NCBI GenBank assembly: GCA_010015585.1 | Contig: ML975152.1 | Reading direction: 5' to 3' (one strand) | Length of the DNA: 64,000 nucleotides | DNA from: Eremomyces bilateralis CBS 781.70 | Taxonomy: Eukaryota | In this document: positions 1,681-54,265 of the stretch, piece after piece | How positions within the stretch are numbered: the stretch's first letter is position 1 | How the letters are laid out: every line of letters starts with the position of its first letter | The notes under the pieces: generated by a model | What the model saw: the letters and a program-made list of their open reading frames with translations, nothing else | Told to the model about the DNA's origin: nothing | Databases searched by the model: none | Made by a program: the position numbers and the translations under genes

Positions 1681-3374
1681 ATGTCTAAACGCGTCAAATA
1701 TTCAGAGCAGACTATACAGAAAGCACTCAAGAAGGCTACAGAGCTAAAAAAAAAAAAGCAGGAAAATCGGTTAACGTTTCAGCGTTAGCGCGTGAGTTCC
1801 AAATCAGCCGGCCTGTCCTTCGAGGCCGCCTTGAAGGAAAAACATCCTATACCAAACGTTCTCCGTTCGTACAAGCGACTAAACTCGATCAGCTACAAGA
1901 AAAGGCTCTCCTAGCTTGGATCCATCAGCTTGATGAGTGGGGAGCGCCTCCTACGGCTACAGAAATCGAAGCGTGCGCCAACTCTATACTCCGAAGAAAC
2001 GCCCTCGATACAACGCAGCCACCTCACGTTAGTAAGAACTGGAAATATAAATTTATCAAGCGCCACACCCTTCCGCTTATCGACCAAAAACCAGTCAAAG
2101 ACGACCGCCTACGCGCTGAGGATCTTGGACATATACAGTATTGGTTTCAACTCCTTCAGGAGCAGATTCAAGAGCATGGAATCGAGGCACGGAATATATA
2201 TAATTTCGACGAAAGTGGCTTCCGCCTTGGTGAAGGGAAGCGGCAAAAAGTGGTTAGTTTCCGACCGGGGCCAAAACGAGGCAATCCTAGTACGGAGTTA
2301 GGCGAATCGGTTACGGATATCGAGTGTGTCGCTGCTGATGGTTTCGTTCTTCCGCCATACTTTATCTTAAAGGGCGAGAACCATCTTGAACGATGGTACG
2401 AAGGCCAGATTCCAGACGATTACTGTATCAACATCTCTAAGTCTAGGTGGTCAAACGACCTTATTGCCTTCGATTGGATCCAGCATTTCCATCGGTATAC
2501 AAGACACCTGGCTAAGAAGGGGAAACGACTGCTCTTGATGGATAACCACGCTTCGCATCTTACCCATGAGTTCATTCAATTCTGCGAAAAAGTTGATATT
2601 ATTCTTTTCCCATTTCCTCCGCATACGACCCATTTCCTTCAGCCGCTCGATGGGAAGCCGTTTCTTGCGTTAAAACACTACTTCCGGCAGACAAATACGC
2701 ATATCTCACGGTGGGGATTCGACGCAGCGGACAAGGCCTCATTCCTTACGGAAATGCCCCAGATCCGCCAAAACGCCTTCAAATCGCGTACGATTCGACA
2801 CGCTTTTAAAGAGAGGGGCCTTTGGCCATGCGATCCTGAGCAGATTTTGCCAACCCTTCGGCAACAGGTTGACCAAGAGGCAGAGGAGCTTCAGATATTC
2901 AATGGCTCGCCTCCACCGTCAAGTATTACGGCAACACCGAGCGCATCTCCACCAAATACTATTCGTACGGTACGCCGGAAACAACAGAAGATCATAAATA
3001 CGCCTGAGGCCCTACTTTCTAGCCGGAAATACCAACATCGCGTTCGCCAAGCTACAAACTCATTGATCAAGGCGGTCGAAGAGATCGAGGCGTATAAGGG
3101 GTCCGTTTCAGCCACACAACGCCAGCAAACCAAAAAGAGTCGCCGCCAGGTTAAAACAGGACTTAGCCAGACCGGTGCTTCGTACGTTAGTGAGGCGAAA
3201 CGCCATATCGAGGCGCGTGGTCAGAAGGAGCGGGAGGCGGTAATTAGGAAGGCACAGCGGGACTGGCGGCAGGAAAAACAACAGGAAAATCAGCAGGAAC
3301 CATCTCCTGCACTCGGTCAACCTACTAGTACGGAGGATCTCGGTTTTTTTATCGATTTACATCCTGAGTTCTGA
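1681..3374 (+). pseudogene. Fot1-like transposase (~564 aa if the frame is restored), frameshifted at A12 run 1746-1757
   Basis: MSKRVKYSEQTIQKAL... then the -1 frame reads AGKSVNVSALAREFQISRPVLRGRL (HTH), QEKALLAWIHQLDEWGAPP (CENP-B-like HTH), NIYNFDESGF, LLLMDNHASH and HFLQPLD (DD35D spacing). No internal stops from 1758 to 3374. Confidence 0.85.
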
Positions 3375-31457: not shown

Positions 31458-32474
31458 TTAATCAAGCATTCCATGGCTATAGAAATAAAGTCAGTGATAG
31501 CCGGGTCGAAGAGAACAATGTGGTCCTTACCGAGCCATGACCGACCCCAAAACATCCATATCCAACCGTCGATCGTCGGGCAGTTCATCCACCACGGGAA
31601 CCATGCCGGCGACCTTCTCTCCCCCTCGGTAGGCGATTAGCGCCGGAACGCCAGCGATGTCGATCTCCGCTTCTTCGTAGTGGAACTTGACGAAGCGGGT
31701 GGTGTCGTATGCACGAGCAAGCTCGTGGACAACGGACTCGATCTCGTGGGAGACTCGGCTCTGTGGCACAACGTTAGAAACATCCAGGAGTGTGCGGGGC
31801 GAGAAGCATACCTTGTCATCGTAGATGAATACCACGACCGTTGTGTCTGGAGCAACCTTCTCGATCGCATCCAGATACCCCTCCCCATCCACCGTCACCA
31901 GGGATCCGAACACCCTCCTATTCTTCCTCGGGCTTGCCGTCCTTGCCCTCTTCTGCTGCAGTTTCAACTGCTCGGGCGTCTGCATCTCCCGCAATCGGTT
32001 CTCCCTCCACCTCGACAGGAAGCCATCGTCACCATCCTCGTCCAGAGCGCGGTCATCGTCCGACGAGCTCGGGCTGCGGTTCTTCTCGTTGGAGGGGGAG
32101 AGCATGGTGCGGGGGTTCAGGCGCAGGGTGCTGAAGCGGCTGGTCTTCTTGGCTTTTTCGAAGGCTAGGGCGTCGGCGATAACGCCTTTGGGGCCGGTGT
32201 TGCCCTCATAGCGGCCTTTAGGGAGGAAGTAGCGGGACCGCATGTCGGTGGTCGAGGAAGAGGCGTGGTAGAGGTCGTCGTCGTCGTCGGCGTCTTCGTC
32301 GGAGGCGGCACGGTTTCGGTGGGAGGACCGAATACCACGAGAGCGCTTCTCGGTCTCGGATGAGGAGTGTTGAGGACTGCCTTCGATATCGGAAAGGCCG
32401 GCGTCTTCGTAATGATGTGATGGACGATCCTTCTCGCTGAAGAGCTTGTTGTATTCTTCCTGTGCTTCTGACAT
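31458..32474 (-). CDS. phnA: Phosducin-like protein (PhLP1 class, PhnA/BDM-1-like); 3 exons
   Basis: NTGPKGVIADA signature, WRENRLREMQ, and a thioredoxin-like C-domain (VVVFIYDD, FVKFHY, VPALIAYRGGE). Confidence 0.85.
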
Positions 32475-33766
32475 GTTGTAGGGAGAAAAAGTCGTCGGGT
32501 TCGGGGACCAGGTGAGATCTTATGCGTTTGAGCTTAGGGCACTTCACGCGGGCAGCAGGGGAGGGACAGCGGGACGGTGACCGGGATTTCAGGATTTCAG
32601 GATTGGCAGGTTTTCTTACTAGGTTCAGAACGTGTGGTGGTGAGAGCGTGATAGCGGTAGCCGATACGACTTGGGACTTAGGAGTTAGGACGTAGGAGTC
32701 AGACTGGAACTCCGAACTCAGGAGTGGTGGACCATGGGCCTCGTGCGCAACAAGGAACATGTGGTGCTGTGGCCGAGTGAAAAAGCGCCGATCTTCCGTC
32801 ATCAATGCACGATTCTAATTTCTATGGGTTGACGTTGTTTCGAGCCTTGAGGCCACTTCACTGAGGCTTAGAAGGCCCCAGGCTGAAGATTGCGTAGGAA
32901 GAAGACCAATAGCCGGTCTGTGTGTGTGTTAGCACTTCTAGACTCCTGAATTAACTGGTCAGGGAAAACTGGAAAAGGGGGGATACACATGATGGTGGTT
33001 CAGCTGCACAATTGGGACAGGCCCCAGGGTCAATGCAAGCAGGGCATGAAATCAATGTAGTCACTTTGTATTGGGATTGGTAGGCAGTTCATTCGCTTGC
33101 AGATTCTTGCAGCTCAGCCATCTGCAGTCCTCATTCCTCAGTCGTATTGGTGATTAGAGACAGGAGAAACCGAGAAAAGGTAATCCTCATGTTTCGGATT
33201 GGACGTTGGAGGAGAAGCTGGCAGCACATCCATCGCCACGTGTAGCCCCTGCATGGCATCTTGCCCTACCGTGATTAATTCTTATTTTTTCTCCTTGGCT
33301 TCGTCTGCCACTAACCCCTTTTCTAGTTCGCGCATGGTGGAATCACTAGAATGTGCAGTGCTGATGCGCTGGAAATCTCTCGGTGACCGGTGCGTGTCTC
33401 TCTTCACTCTGTGGCCGTCACGGTGTCGGGAGTCCCGTCTAGACTCTTATAGGTCTACCACATATGCAAGGATGGTCCCATCGTTGTTTGACGGTCTTCT
33501 TTGAAACGTCCAACGAGTCAGCCTACCAGAGACTCAGAGTTGAGTTTCGCATGAGTCGCATCAAACTGACACCTTCAATTTTCATCGGAGGTGGTCCACC
33601 AGGAGGGACAATGCCCGTTTTCCCACCACCGGGACACTCCGATATCCGGCCCCGATTGAAGGTGGACGAGCAGTGAGAGCGTTTCAGAAAACATCCAGCG
33701 AACCAAATATAGGATCCTGAATTTCTGAAGGGTTTCAGAGTGAACGACAGACACTCACGCCATATG

Positions 33767-36248: not shown

Positions 36249-37650
36249 TTAGGCCCAGATTCGGAGCTGTTGGAGAGAAAACGGATTAGCAGCCAGATCG
36301 CTTAGAATTTACGACAAGATCTGAAGTCAACATACCATTGAATCCCAAGACCCGGTGCACAGACTGATCGCATCATTGCTCACACCCAAGCAGCTCACGC
36401 GGTTGTCGTGTCCTTGTAGAGTACCCACGCGTTCACCTCGAAGCACATCCCAAACCTATAGGCCAATGAGTTATTTGTTTCGACCATCGTTCTCGTTGGA
36501 AAGCATACCTTGCACTCAAAATCGTCATAACCAGCGAAGAGAAGACGCCCTGAAACTGAGAAAGCAACCGATGTGATCCCGCAAACAGGCTCACCGATCT
36601 GGAAAGTCGTCAGTTGGTGGATACTTGCAACGAGAATCGCAACGGGACGGCCTGCAAGCCGATCCCTTGCGCCAATATGTACGCACCGTGTAGCTCTGCA
36701 ATTCCCGGTCGGCGCGAATGTCAAACAGACGGCAAGATGCATCGTCGGAACCGGTACCGAACGCGTTACCGTTCGGGAAATACTGAATCGCGTTGATATC
36801 CGAATCGTGCGCCGCGAACGTCTGCACGCATTTCTGCGCGCGGATGTCCCACAGCTTCGCGAACGCGTCGCACGCGCCCGACACGAACTGGTTGTTGTCG
36901 AGCGGATTGATGCTCAGGCTCATCACGTCGCCCAGGTGGTCGGCGAACTCGTGGATCTTCGCGCCCGTCTCGACGTCCCAAAGGACACAGGTCATGTCGC
37001 CGGAGGAGGTCAGGATGCGGCGGTCATTGATGAACCGACAGCAGCTGAGGTAGCCGGAGTGGCCCGAGAGCTCGCGAGCGACGCGCGTGGGCCCTTCTCG
37101 CGCCGACAGGTTGTAGATGGAGCAGATGTTGTCGAGGCCACCGCAGGCGACGTAGTTGCCGGACGGTGAGTAGGCGCAGGTCATGACCCAGGAGGAGCGG
37201 AGGGGGATGGCATGGACTTTGTTGGTCGTGTAGGCGTCCCAGATGATGAGTTTTCCATCCTGCGATGCCGAGACGAGATGTCTTCGGTCCGTGGACCAAT
37301 GCATCGCGTAGATTTTGGCGAGATGGCCTTTGAGGGTTCGCTTGGTTTTCATCGCAAGCCTGGGAAGTTGGTCGACTCGTGACCGGGCCACATCGCGCAC
37401 TAAAGACCACATCAATTAGCGAATCCATCGTGTCAATTAACGGATATGAACGAAGATAAGTCGATTGCAGCAACGGTCGACCGACGACACGTCGGATGCA
37501 TTGGAAGGTCGACGGAGCTGGAGGAAGCAGCTTACGTGTTGTGTCGGCAAGTTCATCCTTCTTTCGCTTTATCCGGTCCTTCAAAGCTTCTGCATCGCGG
37601 CGAGCGGCTTGAATGCGCTGTTGGAGGGTATCAGCGTTCATGTCGGACAT
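36249..37650 (-). CDS. sfaD: Heterotrimeric G-protein beta subunit (SfaD/GNB-1 orthologue); multi-exon
   Basis: [69 protein letters not shown]40 repeats; ends LRIWA*. Confidence 0.97.
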
Positions 37651-38649
37651 GCCAGGTGGTCGACGAGGTCGAATCGCTGATCGTAGAGCGAGAGAGAGGA
37701 GAGAGCGACGACCAAAGGAGGAGAAGTCAGAGGACAATCAGCAATCACAGCCCAGGGATAGTGGAGATGCGAGGTGGTCAAGCGTCCACTGTTCGGGTAC
37801 GGCACAACTAAAATACGAGGTATGAGTTGGGGTGGGGGGGAGCCGAATCACAACGGGGAATGGCAATGACGAGAACAAGGCAGATGATGACAAAATGAAG
37901 ATTCGGTGATGGCAGAACGGAAGTGGGACGATTGAGGAGTGAGAGGAAGACCGAGAGCTGGAGATCCAAGGTGGTCGGACTAGTGGTAGTAGGCCAAGGC
38001 CCGAAGCTGGAGCAGTTGGTCGGCAGACTAGTGGTTGTACCGTGTATTAGGCACTAGGTATACCGTATAGGTAGGCTGAAGAATAAGAAGCAACCAAGTC
38101 CGTGAGGATGGAGGAAGTATTATGAAGCAATGAATTCCAAGGACGAGGTTGCGCCGGACGTGGAAGAGGAACGTGCGGAGTAGTGCGATACGGTGGCCGG
38201 TGCAGCGATGGTATGTGCGCCGGATGAGAGGGAAATAGGATAGACAAATAGGATGGAGAATTAGAAAGTTGAAGGATAAGGTTGAAGGATGAACGTCGTG
38301 TAGTGGTGCAGTTAGAGTCTGAGGAGCGAGGAGTGGGTTGCCGCAGCGAGATTATTGATGGATTCGGTTGAGATCTGGTGCCGATGGGGAACGGCGGAGA
38401 ACTGGCTGTCGAGTGGAGAGGGAGGGAAGGATGGGAGAGAGAGACGGGGGAGTCAGTTTGGTCACTGGAGTGTCTGTGTGCCCAGTACCAGCCCAGGACC
38501 CAGGACTCAGCAAAGGAGTGTGTGCTGGTGCAGTCCTGACTTATAGAGTGTGGGTGATGGAATAATAGTATGTAGAATAACAATACTGGAATTCCACTCT
38601 GACTGTCACTGGGCCGAACTTTGAATTGAAGAAGCTCCTGCTTGTTCTC

Positions 38650-40692
38650 CTCTCTTCTATATCGAGATGTATAAGCCTATCAGGCGTCATCTTCTGCTTC
38701 TGTTTCTTCTGCTTCTTCTAGATTCTACAGACTACAGCCGCACAGGGATTATTAACATTGCAGGTTCTACCTAACTGCGGACTAACTCCTAAGCCCTTCC
38801 ATAGACTCGTAATGTTCATAGAACAGAGCCAGGGAGAGCAGCCTTAGAGAGAGTTAGAGGCGACAAGGTCGAAGCACTGGTCGGCGGTGCGCTGTGCGGA
38901 TGTTCAACCCTAATTATTATCGACGGATTGGTCTTTTATGGCCCAGTTAAACCTGTTTCCAAGCCTGGACCTAGTTCAACTGGATGATGGATTTGCTGCT
39001 AGGACGAATCACGAACCCCTCGAAATATGAACAAGCTATTGAAGCCTCAATATTAATGGGTACAACGGCTTCTGTTCATCCTGACCATTAAACACTTGGT
39101 ACAGTTATGGATTGAATATAAACTAATGATACCTCTAGATCTAATGTGCGGTTCGTATTGTTACCGGTTTATGTATCATATCTGCTCCCTCTCCTGCTCC
39201 TTCCAATTCCCTTGCGCGCTTCCTAGTTTGGCTTGGAAAGTCGGAATGAATGAAATGGGAGTACGATGTCGCTACTTACTCCACCAATTAGCGGTCCGTG
39301 CTTCATCCCGCGCTTGCCTTCTTTGCTTCACTTCCCCGGCTTCCCTGCCTGCTCATTTCTCCAAATCTCTGCTCAGTGCTCGCATTGTCCTCTCCCCATG
39401 CCAACAGCCAATATTCAATAATGGTATGTATGGAATATTCTTAAGCATTATCCTTTGCTCCTTCCTGATCTGGTATTATGATGATATCCCAACCCCTTCT
39501 GCGTTGGCTTGCTGTAACTCAGGTACGTGTCTATGCAGTATTATGCAGCTCGCCCTGACAGTGCCGTATTATCCCTGAATCGTGAATTCCCTTTTGGATT
39601 TGCCCGACTTTGCTTCGATGTTAGTAAAACGGGGTTTCATTCTTATTTCTCCGGGTTTCCCCCCTCCGGCTTTTCCATCTGACGCCCCGGCACACCGGAT
39701 CCCCTCCCTGCATTTCTTCACTCCTTCTGGACTTCTAGTCTTATGGCTGAATTCAACGGAACAGCCCGAGTTGAATGCCGCTCATCTGGCCGCAGTTTGT
39801 ACCGTCAACGGTGACACCACTAAGCACCGACACCATCACAACCGCGATCTGCAGGCTGCAGCGGTACAGCGCCTCCCATTCTGCAGGAATAAAACGATTC
39901 TTTTTCCATTCCCACCGATATACCCAAATCAGGTAATATTCCGTACGTCCCTTGATACCTATGACCGCGGAGCCCAGATTCCCAACCCCGAGCCCACAGC
40001 AACATCCATCCCCTGCCCGTCACAATGCAAGGAAATAGAGGGCGTGAATGGTCTGCAATCACATCGGTGATTGGACAGTTCCACCGACTTTAATTTGACC
40101 CGCACTGTGTTCGGTCGAATGGTCGTGCCCGCATCAATCATCAGTCATGTTCGCGGGTTTGCCGCAGGTCCGCTGCTCGAGCCGAGAATTAAAGGTCCGT
40201 ACCACCATGTAATATGGCAATTGGGGCATTGACATACCACAGTCCTACTAATAATGATGGGTTCCCCCGCTGTGTATTAAACGCGGAACACTATTCCATG
40301 AAGCCGTTTCATCAATGACCCTCTCGATGAGGCATGATAAGTCCCGATTTGGTGTATCGAGCTTCGTATCGGGCCTTGCAGCCTCCATCCCATTGCCAGG
40401 ACGATTTCTCATTATTAGGGGAATCAAAAAACACCGGTATTTCGGCACTGGTGACGACTCTGAGCGCAGCGCCCGATTCCGTGTGGTCAACGTGTTTCGA
40501 GCTATTCGTAATCAATATCTCCGTTGATAGGGTTCTGCATTGTCAAAAGACCCGAGGCTTTGTGTCTGCCTGCCTGGCCTCCGACGCGCTGGTAAACGAT
40601 GCGAGTCATTCCCAGCGCATCTGGTAGATGAACTTTTGGGGACCAATCCCGGTTCCGTGAAATCATATCGATCCCGATGTGGTGGATTGGTC
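38650..40692 (+). ncRNA. TER: Candidate telomerase RNA (TER/TR), ~2.04 kb; ends approximate
   Basis: Template AACCCTAA 38906-38913. Template-boundary helix 38734-38745/38892-38903. Pseudoknot: P2 39630-39635/39684-39689, P3 39638-39650/40031-40050. Core-enclosing helix 38728-38734/40049-40055. P6 40530-40553. P6.1 AGGC-TTTGT-GTCT 40555-40567. Sm-like AACTTTTGG 40631-40639. Terminal hairpin 40641-40649/40684-40692. No credible ORF. Confidence 0.82.
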
Positions 40693-41364
40693 ATGGACGA
40701 CGGAGGTCGTGGGCGTGCATGCCGAGTTTGTAAACCATGTCAAGGCCATGATGGACGTCCTGGGCCCGATCGGGACTGCTTTGAGGTGATATGGCTGCAC
40801 GTCGATGATCTGCACAACTGCTACTGGTGGCATTCGGTATCAGGTGCCCGCATTGGTAATCCCGTGTGTCTCTATAGTTCTACAGAGCAGTCAGCAGGTG
40901 CCAGGTATATGCAATATATGATCCACAAGCCGATATCCGACATGAGTGAACATCCGAATGCCTTGCATGTGCCTGAACATCATGGGTCACGTGCAAACGC
41001 GTCTTGGAGAGATTATTATGGGTCCTGCATCACGTCTTTCTCGCGCCCGCTGCGCTGCGTTGCCATCAGAGGTGTGAATAAAGTTGGAATACTATGTATA
41101 ACAGTATTGCAGATACTGTATGGATAATGGCTTTGCCACTGGCTCTGAAGTCACTCTATGTCTACAGCATTTCTCCAGTCCCAGCCCTGCCGATCAAGGT
41201 CTGAATTGCCTCATCCAATTCCACATACCAGTAACCATTTTGTAGAGCACAGGACGCTCTATCTCTTGAATGCATCTCCGGGTTTGACTACGCCCCCAAA
41301 CTCTGTCCGGCTATCACCTATCATTGGATGCTTATACTGAAATAACAGCTCCTCTCCTGTCACG

Positions 41365-43676
41365 ATGGGACGCAAACTACGAAGCCAAAAGCGCCAGACC
41401 CGCCTCACCTTTGATCCTGTGCCTGCAGATCACGAGGTGCTGGCTGCCGCTCATCCCGCTACTCGGAAACGAGCGGCGTTTGTTGGATATGAAGGCTCAC
41501 CTGTGAAGAGGCGAAGGGTGGATGCATGGGAAGCAGGAGACGATCATAAAGAATCAAGCGATAGCCCGAACTTGCATGGTGAGTGATACCTGTACCTGTT
41601 CAAGCTCAATATATGCCTATCCTCGCGTCCGTCTCTAACACAGGCTGGAGAAGTCTGTTGAGGAAATCCATTTGAGTTTCACATGTTTATATATCCCATC
41701 AGTAAATCCAAGTCTGTGGCTCACTTTTGACTTTTCAGAAAACGACATCTCCAAGAATTCCAGAGATAGTCCTAAACAGCCACCCCAAAACTCATCACCT
41801 TTGCCTAAGGATGACTCTGACGGGATGGTTGCACCTCCAAGAACAATTGCTCTACGAAACCATCGCCGAAAATCTCAAAAGCAACTGCATTTCGCCGAAG
41901 ACGGTCCGCTAGAGAAACCGAGAGAGCCAGCAACCATACCATGGAGCAGCTCACCAGCGACTCGTCAGGCCCGGGAATCACGTGCGGGTTTCTTTGGTTC
42001 AGATGCACCAGTGATTAAGAGCTCTTGGAAGGCTCGTCGTCGTTTGCTGGATAGTGATGACGAGGACGATACTGAGGGTGAGGGTTGCAGAAAACGGATT
42101 CCGGATGAGTCCGATCACTCGGATGGGTCCGAAGAATCAAGGCCCTCGAATCAAAAGAGCAAAGGGAAACAGAAAATGAAGCAGAGTTCGAAGCATGGTT
42201 CAGATGCAGCAGGGGATGGGGATTCCGATACGGGCCATGATGAAGCTGATGACGATGTCCCCTCGTTAAAGAGGAGCCGGAGTGCCGTAGCTGTGAATCC
42301 CGAAGAGGTTTCAAGCGACGAGGATGATATTCCAGTGCGCTCCTCAGCATTGAAACGCCGTCAAGTCTTCCGTCGTCCTTCTTCCCCTGTCCAGGTTAAC
42401 TCTGACTCCGACGAGGAAGAAGTGGAAGAGGAGGATGACTCGGACGTGCCCCGAAGTGCAAGAAGGCGAGGCACCAGGCTATCAAAACAGCCACGACCTA
42501 GTCTGCGAGAGCTATGGGAGGAAGCGGATTTGGCCGAGGATCTCGAATTTCTTGAGTCTTCGCCTCCTCCAGCGCCTCACAGTCGTGGTGCGCGGTCATC
42601 ACAGGCAACGCCGAAGAAAAGCAAGAAGTTATCTGCCCTCGAAGAGCTTCGTCGGCGCCGACAGAGGCAAATTGAGCCAAGTGCAAACTTGCCAGTACCT
42701 CTCGTCGACGAAGACGAAGATGAAGGCTTGGAAGAGGAAGAGGACGCGGAAATTGTCGACTACAATGGAGAAGACGATGTTGATGAAGAGGATTTCATCG
42801 TCGAAGACGATCCCGACGATCCGCTTGGCGCGCCTGAGATGCCCTTGCAATTCACCAGAATGGGCACCGCAAAGGCCAAAGACTTATTCCAGCATGCGGT
42901 TGCTTGGATGGTGCATAAGAAATTGAACGCCCGATTCCGCATGGACGATGAAATCTATCAGCTCACCTTCCGTAAACTCAGCGACGAAGTCAAGGGTCTG
43001 GCTGGCAGTAAGTTTATGAGCTCGATCTGGAGACCCGATTTCACTCGAGCATTGCGCTCTCGGCCAGGAATTATCATGGAAAACGTGGGCATCGAGGCTA
43101 TGGCGCATTGTGAAGCCTGCAATCGAAAATCCCACCCAGCGACTTGGACCGTCCGTTTCGAGGGCAAGCCTTATGACCCGGAGACTCTCGACGAGCTCTA
43201 CCTCAAAGACAGTAGCTCAAGTTCTGAAGATGACGAGGAAGGATCGAATGAACAACGGAAAATGAAGGCTCGAGGGCCTGATTACGATGCACAAGGCAAC
43301 GAACTCCCTCCCGAGCGGAAGTTATTCTACGTGGGCGTCCACTGCAAAGCCAATGCGACCACGGCGCATACACTGACGCACTGGAAAATCCACCTCTACG
43401 AATGGGTGGTGGACTACTTGGCTCAGAAGGGTCATTTAGCCGCCGAGAAGATCGTCGACCGTGATTCCTGGAGCGACCGAAAGAAGGAGAAGTTCGCGAA
43501 CCGGGTTGCGAAAGGGATGGTGGACGATGGCGAGGTGAAGAGGCTGTATCGCGATTTCCATCATAATGTGGACGATGCGCGGGATGCAAAGGTAAATCTT
43601 CAAGATCATGTTTACCCCGAGTCGTCGCACCGGTGCTAACAGTTGCTAGCAACAATACGGCCGCTGGGGACACTGA
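41365..43676 (+). CDS. Acidic, disordered nuclear-type protein with C-terminal DUF4211-like domain; multi-exon (5' exon structure uncertain)
   Basis: MGRKLRSQKRQTRLTFDP start, DFIVEDD, AGSKFMSSIWRPDFTRALRSRP, CEACNR, FYVGVHC...HTLTHWK; last exon QQYGRWGH*. Confidence 0.7.
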
Positions 43677-44787
43677 TGGCAGCTCAGCATCGTGGGCGTC
43701 CACATTGAGCGATGATATGCAGCATGCATGGATGGGCGAGACGTGGGTCTTACGGATTCTATATCGCACTATTTGGGCATTGATGAAGCTCATGATCGTC
43801 ACGAGAATACGATGATATCCCCTGCCTAAACATCTACCCCATCCCCACACGCCGATCTGAGTAATTCGAATCTCATGTCGCTGTTCAGCTCAACAGAGTG
43901 AGCATCATCCATCCAGCACTGAAATCCTTAAATGACGTCACACACTCGTACCCCAGTTCTGCAATCTCCATGCTGTAATTGTGAGCGACAGATCGTAAGA
44001 TGAAAGCGAGCTTAGGTATTTCCGTTTAAGGCATCTTGTCCTCGTATCCTGAAGCATTGGTGCTTCTGCTTCGCATCTTCCTAGTAATACCATTAGAGAA
44101 ACTCCGACATTGTACCCTATCCAAGCAGAAGTAATACTTAACCGGGACAACTTAAATATTTACTTTTTTTTTACTACACCGATTTGTACCAATTACCAAA
44201 ACAGGAAACCGTATTAGCTAGTTATCCAAAGTTACAATGGGAAACGACGCTGACCAGCCGCCACTTCAATACATTCCGATCCCTTCCATGAGTCAGGAGT
44301 GGGGTGTGATGCTCGGTTTCATAGGTAAATTCCCGACCCTGCACCAAGCGTCGTCTCGATCCGACTTAATCTAATTTCGGTGTGCCAGGTCTGCTAATCA
44401 CTAGCCTGGTTGTATATATCGTCTTCTGGCGCCTTGGAGAAAGGCAAAGGAAGCGAAAGGAAGCGAAGCGTGTCGCCGATCTACGGGCGAGGGGCATCTT
44501 GAGAGACGAGAAGTAGGGTGTCGCTGTCACATATTGAGGCTGCCGTGAGGAAGTCCGAAGCCGCTACGCTATGAATTGAGCAAAAATAAATGAATGGAGA
44601 GGGTCGGGAAATAGATGCCGCGGCTCGTTTCGCCCAATGTATCTCGCGAAAATGGCAACTTGCCATACTATGTCCATGCAACTGAGTCGATATTTCTGAA
44701 AACAGCCGAAGGATTCAATGCTGATGGGTATCTAACTGATTACTGCCTCCAAGATCGCCGAAGAACGAAACGTAAAGTTAAATCCCA

Positions 44788-47700
44788 CTATGCATATGGA
44801 GCCCAGCCGGCAAATAAGACGGCAAGGTTCTGTGCATCCGTCGCTTGCTGGATTAGCTCATTTACAGTCGCCGCAACGCTCAAGTCTTTGGTGAGCTTCT
44901 TTTCGACGGCAGATAAAGCTCTACTTGCCTCTCCGGCCTCGTCCGGTTTGTTGGACGATGACTCAGTCACCCCTCCCAGCGGGCCGACTTGGTCCTCGAC
45001 TTCTTCCTCATCCTGCACTCGTTTGGCTTTCAAAGGCGATATCGTCCAGCTGTACAGGGGATCATAGCGAAGCACGTTGAGAAGTGTCATGATACTTCCT
45101 TTCTCCTCCCGAAGCGCATCAAGCGTAAACTCGCAACAACGCCTGAACACGCCCTCGGTCTTTGTATAGCCCATCGCATCTACGATGTCCCGAGTCAGTC
45201 GGAATGGAACCACTTCAGGAATGGGCAGGACACGTCCCGCCTCGAATGCCACTCCAAGGTCGATATGGACGACCTCGCCCGTCTTTGAGTCGAGAAGAAT
45301 GTTCTGAAGATGACGGTCGCCTAGGCCTAAAACATGCCCAAGTATGGATATGGCAGCGGTAGTCCGGGTGTAGGCGAGTCGCTTTTCGAACCACTCATCC
45401 GGGTCGGAATAATTTTCAAAGAAGAAATGTCGGAGAACCGGATGGTATCGATCCGCTACGTCTTGATAAGCTTTCAGCCTGGATTTTGGATCGCTGCCCG
45501 TAGCCTCGTGGACCCGCTTCCGGCATTCGGAAGCCTTTATGTCTTTGGGGTAATACCGTTCATGCGCTGGCGCAAGGAAATCGTTTAGGGAGATGGTATC
45601 TTTGACGAACTCAATAACCCCGGAGCGGGGAGTGAGAGGGAGGACTTTGTAGGTCCGAATCTTGAGATTTCGCCGACGCGTATTGAAATGGTCACCGAGG
45701 AGCCTGCTAACGTGTTCAAAAACTTGCTCCATGATCGCATCTTGTCTGAGGTCATCAGAGCCTCCTTTGACCTAGCAATTTATTAACCGAGACCTCAGCA
45801 ATAATCTGTTCGGAACTTACCAGCTCTTTGAAAGTATTCCCATCCGATGTCACTGCGGTGATGATCTTTGGCGTACTAAGCCCCCCGGCTATTTTCATCG
45901 TGGTCTTGTAGCGCTCGACAACGGGAACGCTGGAATAGTCACAATCGCTGCGAACTAGGACGTTGAAGCTGGGTGGAGGAACACCAAGGGCAGGGACTGT
46001 CTTTATAAGCCTCTTTGTCGCGGAAAATCGGTCCAGAGACAGTTCTCGGCCAGGTTGCAGCTTTTCTCCACGCTCCCCGTAGATGGGATGGGACGCCTCG
46101 TGATATGCGGCATCGGAGAGATCGATGTTTGACCACGTCCGACTTGACCGTTTGTTGCCTTTCAGGAGAGCTGCGATGCGTTTCGCTGCGTTTATCTTAG
46201 ACAGTAGAATTTCGTCAGCCCCTCCAGGTTGTCCGCTCTTCCCTATCTTCTCCAACTTCGTCCCAGAATGGATGTGATGCATCGCATGGAAGGGATGATC
46301 CACGCAGATCCGAACGACCAAATCCGACAGAAGCGTCTGAAATTTGGATTGGTCCGTTTGCAGTCTCGAGGCTATTTGGTTCATGAGGAACACAAATTTC
46401 CTCGAGGGGACTTTGTCTAAGTGTTTCCCAACGGCAGTATTCGCGAGGTCCATCTCACAAAACTCGAGCCAGAGTGCAAAGAAACGGAGGACACTTAAGT
46501 CGAAGTCGTCGCATGCTGTCAGCCCAAGGAGGTAGTTCTCAAGACTCCGTACAAGAAGATTTTCTCTGCTGTCTTTGATTCTTTTGAGTTCACGAGTCTC
46601 AATGTCAGTCCATCTTCGGACAGCTACCATTTTGCTGGTGTATTCGTTTTTTGCTTTCTCAACCTTTGGGGTCTTCATGAGATCGCGATATGCCTGAATT
46701 TCTGCTTTCTGACGGTCGATGATCCTTTGGATTCGATCCATTTGTTCGGCATGATCTCCACTCTGCAACTGGCGGTCACAGAAAGTGGCGAATTGATTGT
46801 AGACTTGACCTGCGGCCGATCCCTGTGAATGTGGCCTCAAACCGTGAATCGCTGGTTGCAGGTACTCTCTGATAATGTCGTCCGGCTTCTCCAACCGTGC
46901 TTCATCCAGTTCGAATGCCTGGTCAATGATTAGCAGAAGAAGTTCGCTCGACCGGGATCCTTACCAATCGTGCAAGCAGAATTGGTCGATTCGATGCCGC
47001 ACCTTGTGACTTCCGAGCAGTTGTGCCGTTGTTTAGGTTTTGGAGCATCTGGATCGAGCTTTGGTGCTCTCCCTGGTCCCACAGAACCAAGGCCGTCTCG
47101 TACTCGATATCCGCTTGGTAATTGAGCTGCAACGCGTTGTATCGTCTTGCAATCTGATTGAGATACGCCACAGTGGAGAGAGATTCCTGTACAGCATGAT
47201 GGCTCCTGGAGACCTTCGCGGAAGCAAGCAATGAATCGAGTTCGAGTTTCTGGAGAGCCTGCCCCGACATGTGGAAATGGTCATGCAATCGTTCGTTCTC
47301 TCGAAGGGTGCTGAAGATAGTTTCACGCCGTGACATTATGGCCTGCACATCTTGAAACCTAATAAGACGCCTGTTAACGGATTCAACATATGAGTGGTGC
47401 ATCTCCTGACTTACTTAAAATCCTTCAGGAGCTCATTTCGGGACTCCATGGTCTGTTGCACTTCCGAGAATTGTTCTATTCCCTTACAGGAGGCCAGATC
47501 GTCGATCTCAGTCAAAGTTGCCAGTGCTCTTAATTGTCCATTTGCCAAGATGTCCCAGTCAAGAGAATCCAAGGCGTTCAGCGTCGTCAGGAACGCCGTG
47601 TCAATTTGCTGTTTGACGAAGCTTCCATTGGGAGCGTTGCGAAGGCCTTGAAGAACCCTATACAGTGTCGACGACTCATTTGTCGTAGACTCAGGTGCCC

Positions 47701-50700
47701 GCACGTTCCACTCCTCGAGCCGTCTAGCAGTGTTGAGGACGCTGTCCGTGAGATTCAGCTTCTGGTTTTGGAAGACGCCGGCCGTCGGTAGTACGTGGGC
47801 GAACGTCAAAAGATTCATCTGAGTTAGAGCTTTGATCGCGCCTTCGCCATCGGACTGGTCGATATGGGACCTATCCCTAACATGAGCGTCCAGGCGGGCA
47901 CCACGAAACATGAGATGTTTAAGCCCATCCTCTTCGTAATCTAGCCGCTCAATCACGGTAGAGAATCCCGGCTCCTGCTGGACACCATAGAATGAATCAG
48001 GTTCGTCTACGCCCCTGTATATTTCGAGAAGCAATTCCGACGATATTGCAGGTGGAACACCCATGGAAGACCGTCGCCCGCGGGGTTGCGGCTTCACAGT
48101 AAGCTCCGCGAGCATGAGTGCTGTGGTGAACATTCCGCACTGGGATGCTGCTTTCGATGCATCGAGGTAGTTGACATCAAGCCAGCGCACCCTGTCCATA
48201 TGCGTCAATTCGCGTGGATAGCGTTGGCGCTGGAGAAAGAGAAGAATATGGAGAAGGTTCTTCAAAATTGGCTTGCTGGGAGGGTCCATGCCGAATTGGA
48301 TTGCAAATGCCTCGGACAGAAGCTGCTTGGCTATGTTTCTGGATTCTAGCTGCTGGTGTAAAACGAGGTAAGCAAGGGATGGCAACAGTTCTTCGGACAG
48401 ACCTTCGATACGACGGAGTGCGGTCGGCATCACAGAAAGCACGCTGGTTTTGGCCGTGGACTGAACCAGCGACAAGGCGAGTCCACACGACCAAGTCGAC
48501 ACATCATGGGCACGGTCTGCGAACAATGAGGGACTTTGCATACGGGGATGCAATGACGCGTTCGGAGGTAGCATAACGCTCTCATGTGCGCTATCCATCA
48601 ATGCTTTGACAATCTCCTCGTCGAAATCCTCTTGCCAATACTCTTGTTCGGTAGCGGACAGCCAAAGACAGTTCAAAATCGATCGTAGGGTCCATTCAGC
48701 CACTCCTGCCTCGTTAAGATTGTCACTATACAGAACAGAGCCCAGTTTCTGGACAATCGCCGTCGTTGCGGGAAGTTTAAGCGTTTCCCGCTTGTGAAAG
48801 TTTGTTTGAAGCAGGCGACTAGTACCGAGCCTGAGAAAATAGGCTCGACCGAGGACTCTCGCGCACCATTGGAGGTAATTGACGGAAACCCCTTCCAATT
48901 TCGACGATTTCCACAGTTGGACGGCGTAATTGGCTGCTAACTCTTCCGATCCTAGAGCATCATCGCTTTGACGGGGCGGTGGGTCAAAGTTGCGCGTGAA
49001 GAGTCGAAGGGTCAGATTTCGTGCCGCCTCGGAGAGCATATATAGGCCGCTTCGCTCGTCTTCGAACACAGCCAGCAGGAGCCGACTTTCGGCCGAGCCC
49101 CTTTTTGCGTTGCCAACGCCACTTGCATCACAAGCCGAGCGAACAAGGGATTGAAAGTGCCCTTGGTCCGAATTCTGGTTGCCGCCGTGGTTGAGTGCGG
49201 AAAGATATGTTGTGTACCAATCGATGAATTTCTTCGTTTTCGTCTGGGTGATATTGTGTTGGCTCTCCTGGGTCGTTTGATCTTGCTTAGATACGGCGAA
49301 CTGCCGCAATTCTATGAGCGTTGTCAAGGCGATTCCAGCCGTGAATCTTAAGTTGGTACGAAGCGAAGGTGCTCCGTGGACGTACAAATATTGCACAATC
49401 CCGATTGCGTCGTCCGCACAATGCCCATTCACAAGAAATGGCCGAAGAGCATGTAAGGTCATTTCCAAAGGATATCCATGTAAGGCAGAATCTCCGGCAA
49501 AGCAGATCGCTAGTCTGATGCGTCGCAACATTGAAGCGAAATATAACGGCCCCAAGCTTTTGTGTAACTTGTTCAACATCATTCGGAGGACAACCACGAA
49601 TGTTTGTGGGGACCAACTCCTTTTCGCGTCTCGTGAGCCACGGCGGCACATTCGATCGGTTTCTTCCATTAAGAACTGAGTTGGAAAGTCCGGTTGCATC
49701 GCCATCCCCAGGACGCTCTCTGCGTGACTGAACTCCATCATCTCGCTCAGGGCGCCGTATACCCTTTCGTTATTCTTCTGCTTCGCAAGGATCGTCCGTA
49801 TATCACTTTCGTCCCGGACAAGGCATAGAACATGCCCAAGGACTTGTGGAAAGGATTCCCGCACCATTCCCAGGTACTCCGACTTGCCAAGGACCAGCAT
49901 CAACTGATTCTCCATGCTTTTCGGCCCTTTAAGTCCTCGTGCCGTGTCGTGGGCGATCGTATAGGCCGCGGAACGCGCAAAGTTCTTGATCAACATCTCC
50001 TTTTCTGAGCGTTTACAGCAGGCTTGGAGAAGTTCTAAAGAAGGACGGTGAGCTCGTAGGTAAGCCTGTGCGACGGCCTCATCTTCAACGTCGTGCAACA
50101 AGTCACATAAGCCGTTGTATCCGAAGGATGAATGAGGTATCTCGCTTAGCTCATGCGAAGCCGACATCCATGCGAATAGAATTTGCGGTGCGAAAAGTCG
50201 AAACAGCTCTTTCGGGCTCTCCAGCATCAAATTGCGAGACATGTCTGCAAGGCACTGCGTTGCATGTCCGTCGGAGCCGTCGACCATCGCTGCTGTTTCG
50301 AAAATATGATAAACACAGCGACGGAGAAGCGTGTGCCATGATGAGCCGAGTTGGCATAGCACAAGCAGCCGCATAGCAATGCCTTCCATGTGATCCTTGT
50401 CGGATGGCAGGTTTGCTTGTATGTCGTCGAATATGGCTTCGTGGTTTGCCAACGTGAACAAGTTGAACATGCTTGCGATTTGATTGGCAATCTGGAATTT
50501 GATTGGAACCTCAGCCTCATCCAGGAGACTGAAAACTGACGTCCGAACGGACGGCAATCCTTGCTTCTGGCCCATGTCGGGTTGAAACTGCATGAGGCGG
50601 AATAGTAGGCGTGCAATGATTGAATGAGCATTCGCGGACACGATCTTAGCCTTTAAGGCCTTTGAAACGATCCATTCATGGATACTCTCACCCAAGTCGT

Positions 50701-53700
50701 AGAGATCCGGGTTTTGAGTGTCCGCCCAATACTCAACAAATCCGTCGAATACTTCAAGGGCAAAACATATGGCGGCTTCACTCCTCTCCATGTCATAGTC
50801 CTGAAGTAATGATCCTGCGGCCTGGAGAAGGATCTCCGCATCTTTCACGCTGACGGCGATAGAACTGCGGAAAAGAGATCTTGTGAACAAGCGGCAACTG
50901 CAGATTTCGTCCGGAGGTATGTCTGCGAGATAGGAAATGAAGCTAGTGGGAACCCGGTTGTCTTCTGTAGGTTCATCCGCGGCGCACGAGAATAGCTTTG
51001 CAAAGCAGGACACGTACGAACGTACGCTCGATATGCCGAAAAGCTGGGCCGTTTCGCCGCGAGCCGGAACCAGCAATGACTTGACAGGCTTGGCGGTACT
51101 TCTCTGAGAGTCAAATTCGGTGTCCCAATCCATAAAATCCTGGGCATCTTCTTCAACCCATACGGAGGGAAGTTTTTCTCTTCGAACATCGAATGCATTG
51201 GCAAGCCTGGTGCAGAGATGTGATATACCCGGAGGTCGTATCGTATCAACTACGGGGCTTGTAAGAGTTTCTGCGTCTGGTAGGCATTCTCCGATTGTTT
51301 GCACGACCATATCCACATACTCTAGTGGACAGAACCGGGTTTGAACCTGTGCTGCTATGATATCGAAGAGAGAGGATAATTTTGCAGAAACAGATCTGTA
51401 CTGTTTGTCAAGGCGGGGGTTAGGATGCGAAACTAAGGTGCTTCCGAAGATACCGAACATTAATATTAGCCTGAGTCCGGTGGGGGCTTTATTTGTATGC
51501 GTAGAATCCTTGCTCCACACATCGTGAAGTCTATCGGCTTCATGGGACAGAAGATCAAGCAAATGTGCATCGATTTTGAAGGAACGTTGAGAAGCGATGG
51601 GTTCTGCGCCGCCCGATTGGGCTGATTTTGCTGGTGGGACTGTGTCAAGTGATTTTGGAGAACGAGGGAGAAGGAGAAGATATGAAAACACAGCCTCGGC
51701 CTGTTCCGTCTCGGTAAGGACTTGTCCCACGCTGTCCAGAACAGCAAGCGGTGCGGGTACGATGGGAGACCAGGTGAGGTTAGAGCAGGCGTAGAGCGCC
51801 TGGGCGATGTCTTGAGCTATGAAGCGTATTGGAGACAATGGCGAGGCGAGCCCGTCGTCGGAGGTGGCTGGCTTGGTTAGATCGATCTATTGGACGAAAT
51901 GGAGGACTTACTAGCTCGCCACTTGTTGAAGATCCAGCTTATAATACTGACTGCCGTCTGCTCGACAGTATTGGGGTTCTCGGAGGATTTGAGGCGTAGA
52001 ATGCTCTGCCACAAGGACAAAGTTGCATCCGAGAGCACAGACGGCCCCGAGAGTTCTGTCGCATTGAGACATGCTTCGATCGACCCAGAGATATCGACAT
52101 AAGAAACAATCTGGGTTCTCAACATGAGATCTAGAAGATGTGCGGCAGCCCTTCCAGTCAATGGCGATGGAAGTGCTCGGAAACTGACTTGCCACACTTT
52201 TAACCAGGTCTCTTTCATTCCATAACCCTTGGATTGGGGGTGCATAATGGCAGCCGCAAGGACAACCATAGCCCATGCCGACACAGTTGAATTCTGATCA
52301 GAAATTACTCCAGTCAAAGACTCGACTAAAACAGCGAGACGGATTTCAGAGAGGGCGTCGTGGTGGATCATAAATGCCAACACTTGAAGCGCAAGAACCC
52401 TCTCCTCCTTGGGCGAGGATTTGCTTGCGACTCTAAGAAACTCTTCAAAGTATGGTGCACGACGCACCCTTTTCCGTGGTCCATCGAATTCGTTGTTGTT
52501 GTCGTCTCTACGGTTCGAAGGAACGCTTGTGTCAATTGCCGTCATAAAGTATGCAATCATGTACGGGAATGCCCAGGCCATGCCAACAGCATTCTCGCGA
52601 GATCCCTTTTGTTTGGTATTCAGTGTGCGCAGAGAGAACGTGGCGGTACTCAACGCATCCAGATTCTTGTGGGTTGTTTGTCGATGGTGCAGCGTAACAT
52701 TGTGGAGACGCAAGTGGTTGTCGGGTTTTTTGTAGTGGTAGTCGGAGATCATGGAAGCCAGGAGGGACTCTAGGTCAGGCAGATCCATCTGGTTGCGTAG
52801 CATAGACTTCAAGTGGAAACGACCGATTGTTAGAGATATTAATATTTGCTCCTTCAGCATGGGAGTTTTGTTGCTCCAATGCTGCTTGAACGCCCCGAGA
52901 AGCTCGCTCAAAAGATTTTTCGTAAGATCATGTCTCTCCGGTGCCACTCGTAACAGAAGGCTGTTAATGCACGTTACAATATCGAGAGTCCCACGAGAAA
53001 AGGATCTCAAGAGTTCCACGAGACAGAATGCTAACTTTTCTGCCCTCTCCAATGTGGGAGCATTGGCGGGCATCAAAAGAAGTTTCATGCAGTATACGAG
53101 CTCAAGAAGCTTATCGTGATCAGACTTCTGGGAAGTCCGATTGCTTATCTCTTGAGTTGGAGTACGGCCTCGAGTTGGAGTATGACCTCGAACCTCGAGT
53201 GATGCGGGAGAAACCAAAAAGGAGTTGGAGCCATTGCTTCGTAGACTGAAAGATGCCCCTGAGATGATGCTTCGGAGTCGCTGGCAACTGTCCAAGCAGA
53301 AGTCCATGATTTTTAGCCACTGGTTGGCTCGGAGGTGCTCGACATGAGGCTGATATTCGAATATCGTCCTGACACACTTCAGATAATCAAGTCCAAGGGG
53401 TTCGCAAAACCCGTCGTCTCCCACTCGGAGCGTCTGGATGATGTGATCGAGAATTGACATCAGCAACTTGGTATTAAGACAATGAACGCCCCCTTCAATG
53501 ATTTCCCGCAAAGCAACGCCAATTGGTCCTAGGCGTAAAGCAGCAGAATTGGATGTTGCCTTGCTGACTTTCAGCCAAAGTGAACGATCGGAAGATACGA
53601 GCTCGAACAAGGCATTGAATGCATCGTTCCATTCTTCCTTTTTGATCTCCTCAATTTGTTGTGCCTTCCGGATTCTGGAAAACCATTGACGAAGTTCTGC

Positions 53701-53781
53701 AACGCCTTCCTTTTGGTTTTTGAGGACGGAAGACTGCATGGACTTTACAGCGTCCGAAAGACTTGCGCCGTTCTCCTTCAT
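44788..53781 (-). CDS. TEL1: PIKK serine/threonine kinase Tel1/ATM; multi-exon
   Basis: Very long HEAT-like region, FAT region ([16 protein letters not shown]), kinase motifs [52 protein letters not shown], and FATC end [12 protein letters not shown]. Confidence 0.95.
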
Positions 53782-54265
53782 TGTGCATTATGCCGAAGCT
53801 TGGGAGCTTTCTAAGCTTTTAGGTGGAAACACGAATTAATGCAGTGCTACTGTGAAGAAGGGGAGGGAGTCCCCAATTGTTCGTTTTGATGTCTGTTGTC
53901 GATGTAGTAGTAGGAGTATGGAATAGTAGTAGAAGGAAATATCTGGGAGGCTGTTGATCGCGTTGAGACGAGCAACGCGACTGGGGGAACCGGAAGAGCT
54001 GATTGGTGACGCCACTGGATGACAAAGGGGAAGTGGAGAAAAAATATGTGTAAATGCCTGACAGCCTGAGGTTTAAATATGTGGAGTGTCCCACTGACCA
54101 ATCGGCGCGTCTTCTCACCACCGCGTTTCTACATCCCAGTTTCTAGTGTTTCTACACAGACGGAGACACTCAGATACATGCACATACTCTTTTGTTCTCA
54201 TAGCACCACCAGTTCCCTACCCGTCTAACATCGCCGACGGTGCAGGAGGTGTTGCAACGCCCCCG

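Follow-up and report, generated by a model that had tools for sequence, protein, structure and literature searches.

Transcription in the G-beta/DUF4211 gap of Eremomyces bilateralis is most likely non-coding and other than telomerase RNA

Does an apparently empty intergenic gap in the genome of the Dothideomycete Eremomyces bilateralis CBS 781.70 encode the telomerase RNA (TER) of this fungus? The gap lies in a 64,000-nucleotide stretch of contig ML975152.1 (assembly GCA_010015585.1), hereafter the window, between two genes identified by Pfam: a minus-strand G-protein beta gene (G-beta; frame 36591-37415) and a plus-strand gene for a DUF4211 protein (frame 41639-43639). An earlier note on this DNA proposed that the plus strand from 38650 to 40692 forms a TER gene of about 2 kb. 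TERs of 1.6-2.4 kb and TTAGGG-type telomeres are expected in filamentous ascomycetes according to sections of two published studies (PMC3592445; PMC3603654), and TTAGGG as the repeat of the Eremomyces genome is an assumption that we carried over from other Pezizomycotina, again from excerpts of the literature (PMC3592445; PMC8146201). We found that the gap is transcribed and that its transcripts are unspliced and lack a conserved reading frame. The most likely reading of these findings is non-coding transcription other than a TER.

The evidence for RNA consisted of contigs from one public sequencing run (X1), built on 31-letter words, and such contigs give neither strand nor true ends. Across positions 36300-43800, this run skipped three G-beta introns and two DUF4211 introns, all with GT..AG ends. 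The skipping of introns with canonical ends in both genes shows that the run is RNA. Two contigs (A and B; Table 1) crossed the gap, demonstrating that the region between G-beta and DUF4211 is transcribed without splicing. The prediction of a plus-strand transcript of about 2 kb was partly borne out, in that RNA begins at 38649, one base from the proposed 5' end, and continues unspliced to 40921, recovered as two contigs. Contigs A and B shared just 28 nt, which is less than one 31-letter word, a record bridging them was absent, and depth changed 4.4-fold at their junction. Due to this short overlap and depth step, a single 2.3-kb RNA is not established. The junction falls at the edge of the 100-nt interval with the lowest GC content (0.35) in the transcribed stretch. 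On the two flanks, the G-beta mRNA contig (depth of 1035) ended at 38564, at a distance of 85 nt from contig A, and the DUF4211 mRNA contig (depth of 40.9) started at 41084, 163 nt from the end of contig B.

Transcription of the gap carries no conserved reading frame. When 10 gap frames were compared with Pfam, eight matched nothing and two gave noise matches whose E values (0.2 and 0.006) fell well short of the cut-offs. Frames beginning with ATG reached 150, 150, and 144 amino acids (aa) on the plus strand and at most 61 aa on the minus strand. We found no homologue of the 150-aa frame at 39126-39575, which is also absent from the public record, and a frame at 39582-40067 matched only itself and one low-complexity insect protein. 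The second 150-aa frame is on record as a protein (Table 1); it is the sole member of its cluster in a set of about 15 billion sequences and is without a real homologue among 1.84 billion representatives. The plus strand of the gap is pyrimidine rich, with GC skew and AT skew both at about -0.2 to -0.5, and long open frames arise because stop codons are depleted on such a strand, which yields translations rich in Ser, Leu, Pro, Cys, and Phe. We also observed a 325-codon frame at 39096-40070 (+) with a single interrupting TGA at 39576-78, the downstream half of which is the recorded orphan protein; this long frame is probably an effect of the pyrimidine-rich strand. The earlier statement that the gap has no credible open reading frame (ORF) thus held with respect to Pfam families and real homologues, but not with respect to the 150-aa frame that is on record as a protein. 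Because that frame is in NCBI and UniRef, the locus counts as publicly annotated, if only as an orphan 150-aa protein, rather than as "probably unannotated."

We consider it most likely, at a confidence somewhat short of even, that the gap represents real transcription without a conserved coding frame and unrelated to telomerase, in its simplest form two RNAs from the promoter regions of the flanking genes. How many RNAs there are, on which strands they lie, and whether they stem from these promoters are matters of inference, as follows. A short RNA of about 0.4 kb (38649-39056) would begin 85 nt away from where the highly active G-beta mRNA starts, and the distal end of a longer RNA of about 1.9 kb (39029-40921) would lie 163 nt from the DUF4211 mRNA start. 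These RNAs would meet at the lowest-GC stretch (about 39050-39150), which would serve as a shared terminator if they are convergent or, if both run on the plus strand, as a terminator with a promoter after it. The template-like AACCCTAA and the hairpins considered below would then be functionless. Bidirectional promoters of fungal genes are known in yeasts to produce divergent and convergent non-coding transcripts. Like these transcripts, the gap RNAs end 85 nt and 163 nt from flanking mRNA starts, lack a coding signal and splicing, have low depth beside a very active gene, and, as contigs, meet at the lowest-GC stretch. Unlike them, the 1.9-kb part has considerable length and reaches about half the depth of the neighboring mRNA.

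Several observations weigh against two promoter-derived RNAs. A single RNA with thin coverage can likewise show a seam where two 31-letter words are missing, a 3'-biased library would yield the same depth step, and the contigs are blind to strand and true ends. For a by-product of a promoter, the 1.9-kb RNA is long and, with a depth about half that of the DUF4211 mRNA (22 versus 40.9), abundant. The orphan protein on record is encoded on the plus strand, which would be a misfit with a minus-strand RNA B if the protein was modelled from stranded transcripts. Furthermore, an 8-nt template 257 nt from the transcript end and preceded by an 8-bp helix (p = 0.04) is what a TER would show. We regard two RNAs that meet, whether convergent or tandem, as at least as likely as one thinly covered, 3'-biased RNA. 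The telomerase-specific features of the gap, which were at chance level or absent, were also counted for a non-telomerase reading.

Table 1. Coordinates of features in and around the G-beta/DUF4211 gap
Feature	Position in window	Strand	Remarks
RNA contig A	38649-39056		408 nt; mean word depth of 5; unspliced; includes the template-like 8-mer
RNA contig B	39029-40921		1893 nt; mean word depth of 22; unspliced; no joints; includes the P6.1-like hairpin
Lowest-GC 100-nt interval	39050-39149		GC of 0.35; starts at the A/B junction; could be terminator or promoter
150-aa ATG frame	39618-40070	+	Recorded in NCBI/UniRef as protein of the Eremomyces contig; orphan, without Pfam family
AACCCTAA, possible 8-nt template for TTAGGG repeats	38906-38913	+	1.33 repeats; 5' C, 3' T
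Perfect 8-bp helix CCGCACAG / CTGTGCGG	38728-35 / 38892-99	+	Closes a 156-nt arm; ends 6 nt 5' of the 8-mer
ATAAGT, Aspergillus TER-type 5' splice site (excerpts of PMC3603654 and PMC4299874)	40337-40342	+	Only copy in 38600-40950
P6/P6.1 look-alike	40530-40567	+	GGGTTCT...AAGACCC (40530-53), G, stem AGGC/GTCT with loop TTTGT (40555-67), fits NUNGN
Sm-like AACTTTTGG (40631-39), then perfect 9-bp hairpin GACCAATCC (40641-49) / GGATTGGTC (40684-92)	40631-40692	+	
Long 5' leader of G-beta mRNA	37653-38564	-	RNA contig of run X1
TCACGTG-N4-CGCG in DUF4211 promoter	40987-41001	+	83 nt before mRNA contig start at 41084; right-hand limit of the unexplained transcript

The proposed template was found in the gap, and its occurrence is at chance level. 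AACCCTAA is present in a single copy in the window, where 0.91 copies are expected, and 56 of 100 window shuffles contained at least one copy. A template should span more than one telomere repeat, with at least 2 nt repeated at both ends, and AACCCTAA does so at the bare minimum, being composed of 6+2 nt. The 8-bp helix immediately 5' of it (Table 1) is possibly a template-boundary helix. In 82 of 2000 dinucleotide shuffles, we observed an equal or longer helix that ended at most 10 nt from the template (p = 0.04), so that this helix is mildly unusual and the only structural feature somewhat above chance. Template-boundary helices in Aspergillus are mostly 2 nt from the template.

Because the earlier note lacked coordinates for the pseudoknot, the P6/P6.1 element, and the core-enclosing and template-boundary helices, these features were searched for anew. 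A helix said to close the molecule by pairing its 5' and 3' ends has complementary halves as described (TCTAT at 38656-60 with GTAGA at 40624-28, and AGATGT at 38665-70 with GCATCT at 40617-22), but its duplex energy is at chance level. When the first 42 nt were paired with 213 windows along the transcript, the proposed partner ranked 42, at -18.1 kcal/mol relative to a mean of -14.9 (standard deviation of 3.9) and a best value of -25.5. A P6/P6.1 candidate was also recovered. Five hairpins with a 4-bp stem and an NUNGN loop occur in 38600-40950, and one of them (40555-67) lies directly 3' of another hairpin, as P6.1 does after P6. Such a composite occurred 701 times in a 1.6-Mb background made up of the window and 79 fungal loci (0.43 per kb); the look-alike lacks specificity. 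The base between the candidate P6 and P6.1 is G, and a P5 helix was not apparent by eye; an invariant A is reported at the P6-P6.1 junction in a passage of PMC4993307.

A triple-helix pseudoknot could not be recognized. Aspergillus TER pseudoknots contain two U5 runs and an ACAAAAAC strand, as aligned in the supplement of PMC3603654. The gap transcript holds just five runs of at least four U and four runs of at least four A, and the best duplexes of all four A-runs formed without U-runs. Our search of these runs in the transcript found no arrangement of two U-runs with a downstream A-run for a U-A.U triple helix (CS3/CS4). The sole 8-bp helix between a U4 and an A4 run (38930-37/40545-52) clashes with the P6 candidate. 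Folding energy was ordinary, with a mean z of about 0 on both strands over 29 windows and z-scores of +0.28, +1.30, and +1.25 for three longer segments.

At the proposed 3' end, the Sm-like site and the terminal hairpin were present as the earlier note had described them (Table 1). The 3' end of Aspergillus TERs consists of a hairpin, a U-tract, AUAAGU, and GCUAACU in the excerpts of PMC3603654 and PMC4299874, and all known filamentous-fungal telomerase RNAs use spliceosomal cleavage according to a passage of a review. The single ATAAGT lies 190-230 nt upstream of the P6/P6.1 look-alike without a preceding U-tract. ATACGT is absent from 38600-40950, and neither CTAAC nor CTGAC occurs in that interval after 39679. 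Among five splice-site-like hexamers in 40200-41090, none was followed by a YTRAY branch site and then YAG at intron distance, and no spliceosomal-cleavage module (AUA(A/C)GU plus branch site) was found at the proposed 3' end. We also considered an alternative 3' end at 40336, just before ATAAGT. The 540 nt upstream of it contain no canonical P6.1, the fold of 40000-40336 is unremarkable, and the sole branch-site candidate seen by eye is a weak CTCAT at 40403; this model was not adopted.

A search of the whole window against Rfam 15 at gathering score gave no match, and at E ≤ 10, no telomerase family was found in 37700-41400, 40450-40720, or 38649-39450. The Rfam telomerase search that the earlier note had suggested as a check thus lent its proposal no support. 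Rfam includes vertebrate, ciliate, and Saccharomyces telomerase models and perhaps an ascomycete (Pezizomycotina) model. Because the presence of the latter in Rfam 15 is unconfirmed, this negative is weak.

The Neurospora crassa TER has 2049 nt and Aspergillus TERs have about 1.6-2.1 kb in excerpts of published descriptions. Like a Pezizomycotina TER, the gap RNA would have about 2.3 kb if single, and it is intergenic, unspliced, and without a conserved ORF. Some 260 nt from one end, it also has a template motif of the TTAGGG type with a helix just 5' of it and, in its 3' part, a 4-bp/5-nt NUNGN hairpin beside another hairpin. Unlike a Pezizomycotina TER, which has a template of 9-17 nt, the gap has a template of 8 nt, has no recognizable U/A triple-helix pseudoknot, has G in place of the invariant A between P6 and P6.1, lacks the U-tract, AUAAGU, and GCUAACU module at its 3' end, and has different gene neighbors. 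Only short motifs of the conserved blocks of Aspergillus TERs match, in a comparison limited to motifs in the PMC3603654 supplement. The TERs of Schizosaccharomyces and budding yeasts have an Sm site near the 3' end, and AACUUUUGG in the gap resembles the AU5-6GR consensus (as quoted in part of PMC3603654) and is near the terminal hairpin. Unlike in those TERs, a C interrupts the A-U junction of AACUUUUGG, and no 5' splice site is within reach. A canonical Sm site is reported to be absent from Pezizomycotina TERs in a portion of the 2013 N. crassa paper.

What, then, would the gap be if it held a single RNA? Were it a TER gene, one plus-strand RNA polymerase II transcript would start near 38649, AACCCUAA at nt 258 would be the template, bounded by the helix at 38728-35/38892-99, and the P6/P6.1 element at 40530-67 would bind TERT. 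The mature 3' end would lie near the Sm-like site (40631-39) or at the hairpin end (40692), with a polyadenylated precursor reaching to about 40921. Consistent with this proposal, RNA begins no more than 1 nt from the predicted 5' end and extends over 2.27 kb, which is inside the 1.6-2.4 kb of Pezizomycotina TERs (PMC3592445; PMC3603654, each in part). In the 5' part, the 8-nt template comes 6 nt after an 8-bp helix (p = 0.04), and about 360 nt from the transcript end, one hairpin is immediately succeeded by another of the canonical 4-bp/NUNGN type. Post hoc and by eye, we noted that TCAAAAG..AGGCTT..GTCTG at 40543-68 resembles, with a different spacing, the three-way-junction block GGATCAAAG-N3-AGGCTT-N-TC, which is invariant in the 10 Aspergillus-group TERs of the PMC3603654 supplement. 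Also post hoc, TACAGA at 38716-21 is a motif invariant 5' of the template in those 10 TERs. An orphan ORF annotated within a TER is likewise reported for P. chrysogenum in a passage of that paper (PMC3603654). Speaking against a TER, no Rfam telomerase family appeared even at E ≤ 10 on short subregions, the run arrangement for a U-A.U triple helix was not found and the sole 8-bp U4/A4 helix is incompatible with the proposed P6, and G occupies the junction for which an invariant A is reported (PMC4993307, in part). The only ATAAGT precedes the proposed P6.1 and lacks both an upstream U-tract and a CTAAC or CTGAC farther downstream. The template has just 8 nt versus 9 in N. crassa and more in Aspergilli, and both the closing helix and the P6+P6.1 composite are at chance level. 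The RNA contigs break 116-150 nt past the template with a 4.4-fold depth step and do not demonstrate a continuous molecule. There is also no synteny with the Aspergillus TER locus, as no Zpr1 or TIP49-type neighbor occurred among 24 frames. Our weighing of these points was a judgement rather than a computation. There is one TER gene per genome (perhaps 30-40 Mb), whereas by our own estimate many transcribed, ORF-free gaps are to be expected. We judged the positive evidence (a template suitably placed relative to a transcript end, a boundary helix, and size) to carry a likelihood ratio of roughly 100 and the negative evidence (a minimal template, the lack of a pseudoknot, the lack of a 3' module in register with the P6.1 candidate, and the contig seam and depth step) to take back a factor of about 5-10. 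On balance, we place a TER in a range from very unlikely to merely unlikely and adopt a value toward the upper part of this range. A TER identity is therefore neither refuted nor established and is a minority possibility.

An atypical TER of an isolated Dothideomycete lineage, with a minimal 8-nt template, a yeast-like Sm site plus terminal hairpin, and no AUAAGU module, seems to us quite improbable. It would share a promoter region of 85 nt with G-beta, in back-to-back transcription, and, for lack of the AUAAGU module, its 3' end would be made unlike that of all described filamentous-fungal telomerase RNAs. We also think it improbable that the gap produces a single plus-strand, lineage-specific RNA, whether a long non-coding RNA or an mRNA encoding the orphan 150-aa protein (39618-40070). 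Such an RNA would account for the recording of that frame as a protein of the Eremomyces contig, for plus-strand frames of 150, 150, and 144 aa as opposed to at most 61 aa on the minus strand, and for the one in-frame stop in 39096-40070. This reading fits poorly with a protein cluster of one and no real homologue in databases of about 15 billion sequences and 1.84 billion representatives, with the lack of a Pfam family, with a pyrimidine-rich strand that depletes stop codons, and with a sister frame (39126-39575) that is not recorded. Non-coding transcription from the flanking promoter regions remains the reading that we prefer. If the gap did hold a TER, it would be a new member from a lineage without a close sequenced relative (the next DUF4211 protein is 55% identical) and might reveal that filamentous fungi have a second pathway for forming 3' ends. 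Without homology, covariation, or stranded RNA data, a TER is not identified by template 8-mers, P6.1-like hairpins, and end-to-end helices. It is also useful to know that the gap is transcribed and is represented in the public record only by an orphan 150-aa frame.

Relatives of the locus were sought by aligning 27 DUF4211 proteins and scanning metagenomes with the alignment, which yielded 79 loci. None of the 79 metagenome loci showed the G-beta/gap/DUF4211 arrangement of the window. G-beta was near DUF4211 in three of them (L001, L004, and L042), where it was on the other side, separated by a phosducin-like gene or in another order, and template 8-mers in these three loci were at chance level. 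A blastn comparison of 38600-40950 with the 79 loci found no homologous locus, giving only four matches with a best E of 0.1. A three-way-junction-like pattern in L050 and L053 was rejected because it falls within a 453-aa frame.

The DUF4211 promoter contains TCACGTG-N4-CGCG (Table 1), an E-box plus MluI-box-like (MCB-like) composite that we also observed upstream of DUF4211, on the strand of the gene, in 11 of the 79 loci, where about 0.4 matches are expected by chance in 0.8 Mb. It lies at 822 in L002, 17 in L003, 8330 in L004, 4320 in L005, 9257 in L015, 8561 in L033, 7160 in L058, 8920 in L059, 677 in L074, and 8989 in both L075 and L076. The same composite heads the Aspergillus TER alignment in the PMC3603654 supplement, where it is labelled "Promoter?". 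Its position at the opposite end of the candidate and its conservation upstream of DUF4211 genes led us to reject it as a TER promoter in the window. It has the appearance of a promoter element conserved among those genes.

The product of exon 2 of the DUF4211 gene is identical (100%) to the NCBI hypothetical protein P152DRAFT_464923 [Eremomyces bilateralis CBS 781.70]. Its next-nearest relative is 55% identical, and the remaining matches are mostly from Dothideomycetes. In run X1, a separate RNA contig (41578-41736; depth of 2.5) covered exactly the first intron of this gene, which is therefore retained in some transcripts. The leader of the G-beta mRNA, about 900 nt long, is pyrimidine rich on the transcribed strand and contains short direct repeats (families D1, D3, and D5). 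A Pfam scan of 24 window frames found no Zpr1 or TIP49-type gene, which neighbor the Aspergillus TER. Directly downstream of the DUF4211 gene is a Tel1/ATM-type kinase gene with TAN, PI3/PI4-kinase, and FATC domains (44788-53787, minus strand); the adjacency of this telomere-length gene to the TER candidate is probably a coincidence. Elsewhere in the window, an intact-looking 561-aa frame at 1689-3374 (+) with a DDE_1 endonuclease domain and a Tc5 transposase DNA-binding domain encodes a pogo/Tc5-type transposase. Finally, a phosducin-like gene (31527-32519, minus strand) and the G-beta gene (36300-37652, minus strand) are same-strand neighbors in the window, as they are in the metagenomic loci L004 (11430-12511 and 14300-15500) and L001 (2163-2891 and 4923-5720). 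The linkage of these functional partners thus seems to have been conserved while the DUF4211 gene moved.

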